From Escherichia phage bumzen: a DNA stretch of 64,000 nucleotides. Of this stretch, positions 2,587-2,717 are shown one piece after another; the first letter of the stretch is position 1; each line of letters starts with the position of its first letter. The position numbers and the translations under genes are program-made. The notes under the pieces are model-generated. The model saw only the letters and a list, made by a program, of their open reading frames with translations. It had not been told where the DNA came from and searched no databases. The DNA is taken from sequence record MN850635.1; one strand, given 5' to 3'.

Positions 2587-2717
2587 CAGAAGACCGTTTA
2601 CAGCAAAACTTAAACAATCTATTTCTCGGTAAAGAAAAGGCGAAGGTTCGATTCCTTCACTCGGCAGAGGTCGAGTTGGTGTAATGGTAGCACTTAAGAT
2701 GATAAACAACGGTCTGG
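2587..2717 (+). ncRNA. stem-closed element enclosing a circularly permuted tRNA-like module (Y-RNA-like candidate)
   Basis: AGACCGTT (2591-2598) pairs with AACGGTCT (2708-2715). Inside: T-arm GAAGG-TTCGATT-CCTTC (2642-2658), hairpin ACTCGGC-AGAG-GTCGAGT (2659-2676), D-arm GTGT-AATGGTA-GCAC (2679-2693). Confidence 0.45.

Follow-up and report, generated by a model that had tools for sequence, protein, structure and literature searches.

The conservation of Ro60 proteins and of their Y RNAs extends from bacteria up to humans. Among the bacterial Y RNAs, YrlA has been defined by its position next to rsr, by a 5′ GNCGAAN0-1G motif and by the tRNA-mimicking stem-loops V, T, AS and D (Chen et al. 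2014, PMC4201824), with the arms following in the order V, T, capped acceptor stem and D within a long closing stem (PMC4201824; bioRxiv 10.1101/312249; PDB 6CU1). The search of Chen et al. was limited to genomes annotated with a TROVE protein; the YrlA of M. smegmatis, with an acceptor helix of 7 bp, was cleaved by RNase P, and the partner of the tRNA-like domain is still not known, even for canonical YrlA (PMC4201824). The Ro60 of Thermus phage phiLo is canonical and binds two phage Y-like RNAs (Yrl1 and Yrl2) together with the host PNPase (PMC12135203; PDB 9KOP, 9L5Y), and it was proposed to hijack host RNA decay through PNPase and so escape defence (PMC12135203). The gp130 protein of phage Bas63 is structurally Ro60-like and counters the ppl defence (PhageMaP preprint, 10.1101/2024.10.10.617714). 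Since T7 is rescued on a ppl strain by gp130 alone, whether encoded on a plasmid or within the T7 genome, the phage RNAs are not needed for the anti-ppl phenotype; the authors guessed that "some tRNA genes ... are possibly Y RNAs", and no RNA was identified (10.1101/2024.10.10.617714).

We analysed a window of 64,000 nucleotides of Escherichia phage bumzen (MN850635.1), meaning this whole stretch of DNA, in which all positions below are counted. The first 4.2 kb were 97.8% identical to Escherichia phage tootiki and were matched over most of their length by about 240 other Felix O1-like phages (Felixounavirus). The 25 tRNA genes that ARAGORN recovered, every one of them on the plus strand, form an array from 1776 to 7048, and we found four elements in its first part that share a common terminal structure, hereafter the handle. 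We conclude, with a probability of roughly 0.7, that element 4 is a YrlA-type Y-RNA-like ncRNA of a Felix O1-like phage, in which the handle would be the site of a Ro60-like ring protein and the tRNA-like domain would serve for display. The features are as follows.

195-1610, plus strand: gene of the Ro60-like protein, 471 aa, with a HEAT-repeat ring and a vWA domain (AlphaFold2 and Foldseek)
1629-1657 and 1720-1749, plus strand: two promoter-like sites, TTGACA-17-TAATAT and TTGACA-18-TAAAGT, respectively (consensus scan; consensus only, not proof)
1949-2015, plus strand: element 1, short handle-only RNA, AGACCAA-TTACAGCAA ... TTGGTCT-G, between tRNA-Glu and tRNA-Met (sequence, handle scan and fold)
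2115-2169, plus strand: element 2, short handle-only RNA, AGACCGT-ATTCAGCAA ... ACGGTCT-G, between tRNA-Met and tRNA-Asn (sequence, scan and fold)
2502-2572, plus strand: element 3, short handle-only RNA, AGACCAA-ATACAGCAA ... TTGGTCT-G (sequence, handle scan and fold)
2591-2716, plus strand: element 4, complete Y-RNA-like molecule with a tRNA-like domain (R1 covariance model, 92.8 bits, E 3e-16, full length)
2591-2606, plus strand: 5′ half of the handle of element 4, i.e. the helix strand AGACCGTT (2591-2598) and then TACAGCAA (2599-2606) (sequence; helix covariation over 119 distinct sequences)
2609-2612, plus strand: anticodon-stem-like strand CTTA, pairing with TAAG at 2695-2698 (MFE fold)
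2618-2640, plus strand: long variable-arm hairpin (MFE fold)
2642-2658, plus strand: T-arm, with GAAGG (2642-2646), loop TTCGATT (2647-2653) and CCTTC (2654-2658) (sequence and covariation)
2659-2676, plus strand: capped acceptor-like helix, with ACTCGGC (2659-2665), loop AGAG (2666-2669) and GTCGAGT (2670-2676) (sequence and covariation)
2677-2678, plus strand: linker TG (U8-G9), at the position of tRNA nucleotides 8-9
2679-2693, plus strand: D-arm, with GTGT (2679-2682), loop AATGGTA (2683-2689) and GCAC (2690-2693) (sequence and covariation)
2708-2716, plus strand: 3′ half of the handle, AACGGTCT (2708-2715) and a conserved unpaired G (sequence and covariation)

The 195-1610 ORF ends with its stop codon 981 nt before the start of element 4, which has the orientation of the ORF and has tRNA-Asp (2360-2436) on one side and tRNA-Lys (2869-2944) on the other. 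No plus-strand terminator-like site was found within the scanned range of 100-3500, thus elements 1-4 belong to one putative transcription unit; the promoter-like sites at 1629-1749 would drive this array of tRNAs and Y-like RNAs. In the Bas63 record, the region of element 4 is overlaid by two minus-strand "hypothetical protein" CDSs (bas63_0137 and bas63_0138). A coding role of the region was considered and rejected: no conserved ORF was found over element 4, the ORFs reached at most 44 aa and mostly had non-ATG starts, and their frames were not maintained between Felixounavirus, Suspvirus and Mooglevirus. We regard the two Bas63 CDSs as spurious.

The earlier note on this DNA had called the product of 195-1610 Ro60-like, a claim that was borne out by fold and not by sequence. 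Pfam assigned only DUF2828 and DUF7788 to this protein, NCBIfam had no family for it, PHROGs labelled it merely "RNA-binding protein", and a sequence search of the PDB returned no match, so that structure prediction was needed. The AlphaFold2 model, built on 49 homologues, reached a pLDDT of 88.9 and a pTM of 0.88. The best 10 Foldseek matches in the PDB were all full-length matches to Ro60/TROVE proteins (probability 1.0, E 1e-8 to 8e-7, TM 0.54-0.66), namely the Ro60 of Thermus phage phiLo, Xenopus and human Ro60, and D. radiodurans Rsr (including 1YVP, 2I91, 2NVO and 9KOP), with isolated vWA domains ranking below them. A DxSxS MIDAS motif was found at residues 279-283, with D279, S281 and S283 invariant in the family. 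Pfam TROVE (PF05731) matched 0 of the 49 family members at E up to 1, and vWA_Ro60 gave weak matches in 13 of them. By its predicted structure the product of 195-1610 is Ro60-like, though it is not a Pfam TROVE member. The gene is the direct orthologue of Bas63 gp130: bas63_0130 is the same 1416-nt gene, located directly upstream of the Bas63 tRNA array. The protein family comprised 2547 matches among the candidates scored and 709 phage records, with phages of Vibrio, Klebsiella, Aeromonas, Campylobacter, Listeria, Staphylococcus, Enterococcus, Bacillus and Mycobacterium (cluster L), the latter carrying the gene under the annotation "Ro-like RNA binding protein".

Regarding the RNA, the earlier note had described a module of T-arm, capped helix and D-arm at 2642-2693, placed inside a closing helix and without an anticodon arm. 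All its strings and coordinates are correct in the sequence, AGACCGTT at 2591-2598 does pair with AACGGTCT at 2708-2715, which is followed by GG, and there is no anticodon arm. ARAGORN and Rfam, the latter at gathering and at permissive thresholds, called nothing at element 4, as expected for a permuted fold; element 4 departs from the RF00005 cloverleaf in its permuted order, its capped acceptor and its lack of an anticodon loop. At the handle elements of the window, Rfam 15 returned no family except tRNA. The body of element 4 is a circularly permuted tRNA that keeps the equivalents of the elbow-building nucleotides G18, G19, T54, Psi55, C56, A14, A21 and A58. In particular, the T-arm carries the equivalents of G53-C61, T54, T55, C56 and A58, the capped acceptor-like helix has 7 pairs, 1 of them U-G, and the D-arm, with A14, G18, G19 and A21, is followed by a single T and then by TAAG (2695-2698).

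The RNAfold MFE structure of 2587-2717 reproduced every helix that had been proposed, i.e. T-arm, capped helix, D-arm and closing helix, with a z-score of only -2.05. As this thermodynamic significance is weak (z about -2), the case for the structure rests on covariation. The fold also held two features beyond the earlier note, the variable-arm hairpin at 2618-2640 and the 4-bp A/U helix 2609-2612/2695-2698, which occupies the position of an anticodon stem. Both are conserved only within Felixounavirus and Suspvirus and are the weakest part of the structural model. We also wrote a strict descriptor of the module, consisting of a 5-bp T-stem with the loop TTCRANN, then, without any gap, a perfect hairpin of 7 bp with 3-8 nt in its loop, and, after 2 nt, a 4-bp D-stem with A14 and GG. 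It matched once in the window, at 2642, and gave 0 matches on both strands of 400 simulated 64-kb sequences.

For comparison, we used 80 loci from viral contigs and several annotated phages. A structural scan found the module of T-arm, capped helix and D-arm beside the protein gene in widely differing phages, the sequences of its helices varying from one to another. Junctions between consecutive tRNAs imitate the module pattern and were a source of false positives in scans. The covariance model R1, built from 11 homologous modules, gave 134 matches at E up to 1 from 72 sources, all 134 on the strand of the DUF2828 gene. Orthologues in Suspvirus, Mooglevirus and Klebsiella phage FBKp34 scored 92-110 bits, and Mycobacterium phage Rumpelstiltskin had a full-length match of 74 bits just 3′ of its Ro-like gene, flanked by two short handle RNAs; element 2 of the window itself reached 30.6 bits, a score owed to its handle only. 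Triplets of handle RNAs adjoin the gene in Listeria phage A511 and in a Staphylococcus phage, and in a Campylobacter phage handle-type matches were found upstream of it, 2 of the 3 overlapping Rfam-called tRNAs.

Among the 19 best homologues, 95.3% of the cells were paired, vs 65.8% in shuffles, and compensatory changes were present in 21 of the 23 pairs of the 4 helices, across very distant phages. The covariation score was 0.703, vs 0.198 in shuffles, none of the 500 shuffles reached it, and controls with slid partners scored 0.07-0.12. The alignment of these 19 homologues was fitted to the model, which favours structure, and the raw MAFFT alignment already had the same compensatory pattern. 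By helix, the T-arm was 98.9% paired with 4 of 5 pairs covarying, the capped acceptor-like helix had compensatory changes at 7 of 7 pairs, and 3 of the 4 D-stem pairs covaried. Within Ounavirinae, the handle, T-arm and D-arm were invariant, and differences elsewhere fell in loops or were compensatory: the acceptor-like helix was rewritten with its pairing kept, from ACTCGGC/GTCGAGT in Felix to ACACGT/GCGTGT in Susp and ACCCTTC/GAAGGGT in Moogle.

The four elements of the window all start with AGACC(R)(W)(W)-(W)WWYCAGCAA and end with (W)(W)(Y)GGTCT-GG, and only element 4 has a tRNA-like insert, elements 1-3 having short hairpins instead. The handle consists of a closing helix of 7-8 bp, a single-stranded (U)WYCAGCAA on the 5′ side and an unpaired G after the 3′ strand (3′ CUG). 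Across phages, the common frame reads [A/U]-G-R-helix, (U)WYCAGCAA, cargo and an A-rich stretch, and then the complementary helix strand and Y-C-[U/A]-G. In 119 distinct sequences the handle helix was 95.7% paired, with compensatory changes at 7 of 7 pairs. The first two pairs (A-U and G-C) were nearly fixed, the first being A-U in 80 sequences and U-A in 13 and the second G-C in 102 of 109, and the remaining pairs covaried freely. The CAGCAA of the homologues was invariant or nearly so, rarely CCGCAA. Independently of R1, a regular-expression descriptor of the handle matched 104 times on the gene strand and 13 times on the opposite strand within 1.5 kb of the gene, with at least one match in 50 of the 65 loci outside Ounavirinae. 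The handle is found on the gene strand beside DUF2828 genes across phages of Proteobacteria, Mycobacterium, Listeria, Staphylococcus and Campylobacter. A relative within Ounavirinae that lacks the Ro gene was sought among Erwinia phages, as a test of co-loss of protein and RNA, and none surfaced. The 3′ GGUCUGG of the window resembles the GGUCCGA of metazoan Y RNAs; this likeness looks coincidental, the helix interior varying freely in other phages.

The tRNA-like body was also re-permuted in silico: the capped helix was opened, and a 7-nt loop was placed at the opposite end to close it. The homologues of Klebsiella phage FBKp34 and of locus L021, otherwise unmodified, were then called as tRNAs by ARAGORN at default settings, their anticodon stem having 5 bp and their variable loop 5 nt. 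The window module gave no tRNA call with its native variable region of 28 nt and was called once this region was shortened. The equivalents of the T-loop, the D-loop, U8 and G53-C61 are canonical in element 4, while those of the Levitt pair (15-48) are a non-canonical A15 with C48; this pair is A-A in some Felixounavirus and Suspvirus, and G-C or A-U in more distant homologues. Taken together, these features indicate that the acceptor/T/D core is of tRNA grade and that the side of the variable arm and anticodon stem has diverged.

The relatives differed in how the cargo is joined to the handle. Their acceptor loop frequently has the form N-CCA with a spacer after it, as in Moogle (GCCAAACA) and at loci L021, L046 and L072, and so looks like the 3′ terminus of a tRNA with a leader behind it. 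Un-permuted relatives (6896-7018 and 7025-7140 in L046; 6003-6116 in L003) are tRNAs with an encoded CCA in which the anticodon loop has become a closed handle hairpin, and at 7327-7429 of L072 the body is that of a tRNA-Lys(UUU) whose anticodon arm is intact and whose acceptor stem has given way to the handle. Handles of other relatives carry non-tRNA cargos. No description of these handle RNAs was found in Rfam 15 or in the literature searched.

The earlier note had further proposed that element 4 is a Y-RNA-like ncRNA partnered with the 195-1610 protein, and had pointed to YrlA-type Y RNAs. The predicted fold of the protein, the order of the arms, the covariation and the same-strand linkage support this reading; the YrlA-defining GNCGAAN0-1G does not, being absent from the 5′ region of element 4 (CAGAAGACCGTTTACAGCAAAAC), where ACAGCAA takes its place. 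As the motif is absent, the case for recognition of the handle by the protein is one of co-occurrence only. The element 4 family probably partners with the Ro60-like protein. By analogy with the stem of Y RNAs bound by Ro60, the handle would be the binding site of the Ro60-like ring protein encoded 1 kb upstream, for which elements 1-3, with the same handle, may compete or which they may share, in parallel to YrlA and YrlB of Salmonella. Element 4 could be excised from the transcript of the tRNA array by the tRNA-processing nucleases that free its neighbours; as a tetraloop caps its acceptor helix, the molecule itself is expected to stay uncleaved. Its tRNA-like domain would display a tRNA elbow and an acceptor/T-stack, without anticodon or CCA end, and may thereby tether to the Ro-like protein, or titrate from it, a factor that recognises tRNA shape. 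Candidates for this factor are a host enzyme of tRNA processing, repair or modification, an exoribonuclease such as PNPase, and a tRNA-targeting defence nuclease. The resulting RNP might then work in RNA surveillance or in counter-defence during infection, the phage RNAs probably serving an RNP function other than the anti-ppl one, or modulating the latter. In a wider sense, we consider the chances about even that the CAGCAA handle marks a phylum-spanning family of phage Y-like RNAs for DUF2828-type Ro60 paralogues, a modular adaptor that would load varied cargos on the ring protein.

The position of element 4 in a tRNA array and its conserved elbow determinants would also fit a stand-alone tRNA decoy, whose permuted body soaks up a host tRNA-binding enzyme or a defence nuclease without the Ro60-like protein and whose closing helix merely stabilises it. 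The tRNA-Lys(UUU) body with intact anticodon arm in L072 points the same way, since tRNA-Lys(UUU) is a target of known anticodon nucleases, and so does the action of gp130 against ppl without the phage RNAs. However, what is constant among the relatives is the handle and not the cargo; the handle is also borne by RNAs without tRNA-like cargo and accompanies DUF2828 genes, in their orientation, in phages of different bacterial phyla, whereas a mere stabilising stem would not keep a single-stranded CAGCAA and a conserved helix base. We regard such a decoy as unlikely. A role as tRNA-like punctuation, drawing RNase P or 3′ processing enzymes to the polycistronic tRNA transcript, seems more improbable still. 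RNase P relies mainly on a 7-bp acceptor helix that stacks on a T-arm, the 7-bp helix of M. smegmatis YrlA is cleaved (PMC4201824), and the N-CCA plus spacer in the acceptor loops of Moogle, L021, L046 and L072 would suit this role, but the helix of the window is closed by a 4-nt loop without CCA or leader, punctuation would need neither the handle nor the D-arm, and the neighbouring tRNAs are already self-sufficient substrates of RNase P.

We see hardly any chance that the module is a functionless relic, either the T-arm of a decayed tRNA abutting the D-arm of the next one or a piece of one of the small ORFs that the Bas63 record places on the minus strand. Although tRNA-tRNA junctions do imitate the pattern and bas63_0137 and bas63_0138 are annotated over the region, the strands of the capped helix, unlike such junctions, pair perfectly and covary, the module has been kept, under compensatory rewriting, in different genera and phyla, and the short, mostly non-ATG frames (44 aa at most) are not kept among Felixounavirus, Suspvirus and Mooglevirus. 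The permuted tmRNA that the earlier note had offered as an alternative did not hold up. Here the module would be the tRNA-like domain of a two-piece tmRNA whose tag template lies 500 nt downstream, and the order of T-arm, acceptor 3′ strand, loop and acceptor 5′ strand does match that of permuted tmRNA genes, with a conserved tag frame (ANDNVFLAVA*) at 3203-3235 and sub-threshold tmRNA matches. Against this, the acceptor begins with G1-C72, U2-G71 and C3-G70 and so lacks the G3:U70 alanine identity pair, there is no CCA, the tag frame is not adjacent, three tRNA genes and a separate promoter lying between it and the module, no Rfam tmRNA model matches 2587-2717, and the homologues of other phages have no tag nearby; we therefore hold this reading to be extremely improbable.

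Read as a Y-RNA-like partner of a Ro60-like protein, element 4 belongs to a genetically tractable locus, with E. coli as host, easily engineered phages (Bas63 and relatives of Felix O1) and four candidate RNAs that can be deleted individually, and gp130 already has a published knockout phenotype, the loss of resistance to the ppl defence. The locus would also reveal a putative RNA-recognition code that belongs to a whole branch of Ro60-like proteins; this branch is present in more than 700 sequenced phage records and is classified under "domains of unknown function". Phage "tRNA arrays" conceal non-tRNA genes that are now unannotated or mis-annotated as small minus-strand ORFs. If the handle does define a family, phages would display parts of tRNAs through a Ro60-like RNP, where they serve as bait or adaptor in the contest for the tRNAs of host and phage, and eukaryotic DUF2828 proteins may have RNA partners of a like kind.

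Compared with the known systems, element 4 shares with permuted tRNA genes and two-piece tmRNAs that the 3′ half of the tRNA fold is encoded before the 5′ half. In those molecules, however, processing restores the free ends of the acceptor, and an anticodon arm or a tag template is retained, whereas the acceptor of element 4 is capped, with its ends and the candidate protein-binding handle at the position of the anticodon loop. The locus resembles that of phiLo in having a phage-encoded protein of Ro60 fold with more than one adjacent Y-like RNA, and no structure matched the window protein better than phiLo Ro60; the two proteins are only 15-16% identical in sequence, the Yrl RNAs of phiLo use a CGAA motif, and the term "tRNA-like" occurs 0 times in the text of the phiLo paper (PMC12135203). 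Bas63 is likewise a Felixounavirus with the gene in the same position before the tRNA array, but the real Y RNA candidates are unannotated elements between the tRNAs and not tRNA genes.

The closest likeness is to YrlA. Element 4 lies beside, and on the strand of, a gene for a protein of Ro60 fold (within about 4 kb, the distance used to define YrlA), and has a long terminal stem with a candidate protein-binding module. It is arranged as variable arm, T-arm, closed acceptor stem-loop, two-nucleotide linker and D-arm, the tRNA elbow nucleotides are conserved in its homologues, and it has shorter siblings with a common binding module (YrlB there, elements 1-3 here). It differs from YrlA in the 5′ motif, (U)WYCAGCAA vs GNCGAAN0-1G, in the candidate partner, DUF2828/DUF7788 and not Pfam TROVE, in the acceptor helix, 7 bp vs 6 in Salmonella YrlA, in the linker, UG vs the conserved UA, in its non-canonical Levitt pair, and in that its gene is embedded in a phage tRNA array. 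As the arm order is identical to that published for YrlA, the architecture in the window is the known YrlA architecture. Element 4, with its permuted tRNA body, is a genuine tRNA mimic of Y-RNA-like type, a kind of molecule that is already known; as far as sequence comparison tells, it is a member of a variant family widespread in phages, undescribed in Rfam and the literature searched, with a putative recognition motif and a Ro60-like protein branch of its own.

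Two annotated CDSs in the record of phage Bas63 (MZ501086) cover element 4, the Y-RNA-like RNA of the tRNA array, together with its 3' flank; both are probably spurious, and in most other records the region is unannotated. These CDSs and the features of the window considered here are as follows.

Bas63 (locus L088, 3122-3396), minus strand: bas63_0137 and bas63_0138, 'hypothetical protein' CDSs in the record annotation
Window, 3119-3349: tmRNA-type tag template, a separate transcription unit (promoter-like site and tag frame)
Window, 3119-3147: promoter-like site TTGACA-17-TATACT, found in the sequence ahead of the tag frame
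Window, 3203-3235: tag frame GCAAACGACAATGTTTTTCTGGCAGTAGCTTGA, encoding ANDNVFLAVA*
Window, 3350-3433: tRNA-Arg(TCT)-like gene (Rfam, 33.4 bits)
Window, 3448-3794: HNH homing-endonuclease-like ORF, inserted in the tRNA array

The tag unit matched the Rfam models tmRNA_permuted (30 bits) and tmRNA (15 bits), both below threshold, and both matches aligned the tag region at high posterior probability. The tag frame was conserved in Suspvirus and Mooglevirus, with synonymous changes. We found no tRNA-like domain for this unit, and ARAGORN made no tmRNA call on it. The tmRNA-like transcript is immediately followed by the tRNA-Arg(TCT)-like gene, which has no D-arm (15 model positions replaced by 4 nt) and a variable region of 23 nt; ARAGORN made no call there, and the same gene is labelled tRNA-Arg in related phage records. 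In the matching phage records, the stretch equivalent to the HNH ORF carries an HNH endonuclease annotation. An unrelated viral contig (L055) also has a tag frame of the tmRNA type, ANDAFYGETRLAA*, at 2240-2281, approximately 1.9 kb upstream of its DUF2828 (Ro60-like protein) gene.

Among the comparison loci around DUF2828 genes, the handle (closing helix, 5' single-stranded (U)WYCAGCAA and unpaired 3' G) was found in three arrangements.

Handle RNAs, cargo without a tRNA-like arm: L055 3792-3920; L083 4613-4744; L078 6459-6595; L079 4430-4596
Otherwise ordinary tRNA bodies, handle replacing the acceptor stem: L072 7327-7429 (Rfam tRNA match); L064 7190-7316
tRNAs with the handle at the anticodon-loop site (Rfam tRNA matches, long insertion): L046 6896-7018; L046 7025-7140; L003 6003-6116

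No tRNA-like arm was seen in the enclosed part, or cargo, of the first four RNAs (120-170 nt), and therefore several unrelated cargos are carried on one handle. The L072 cargo had both D- and T-arms as well as an anticodon arm reading UUU (Lys), and it matched positions 5-66 of the Rfam tRNA model (55.7 bits); its anticodon arm may be displayed as bait. The three remaining tRNAs scored 41-57 bits, encode CCA, and have as their anticodon-loop region the handle in the form of a closed hairpin, ordered 3' strand, loop, 5' strand and AUUCAGCA. Their topology is that of the YrlA-like RNA without the permutation, with the acceptor ends free.
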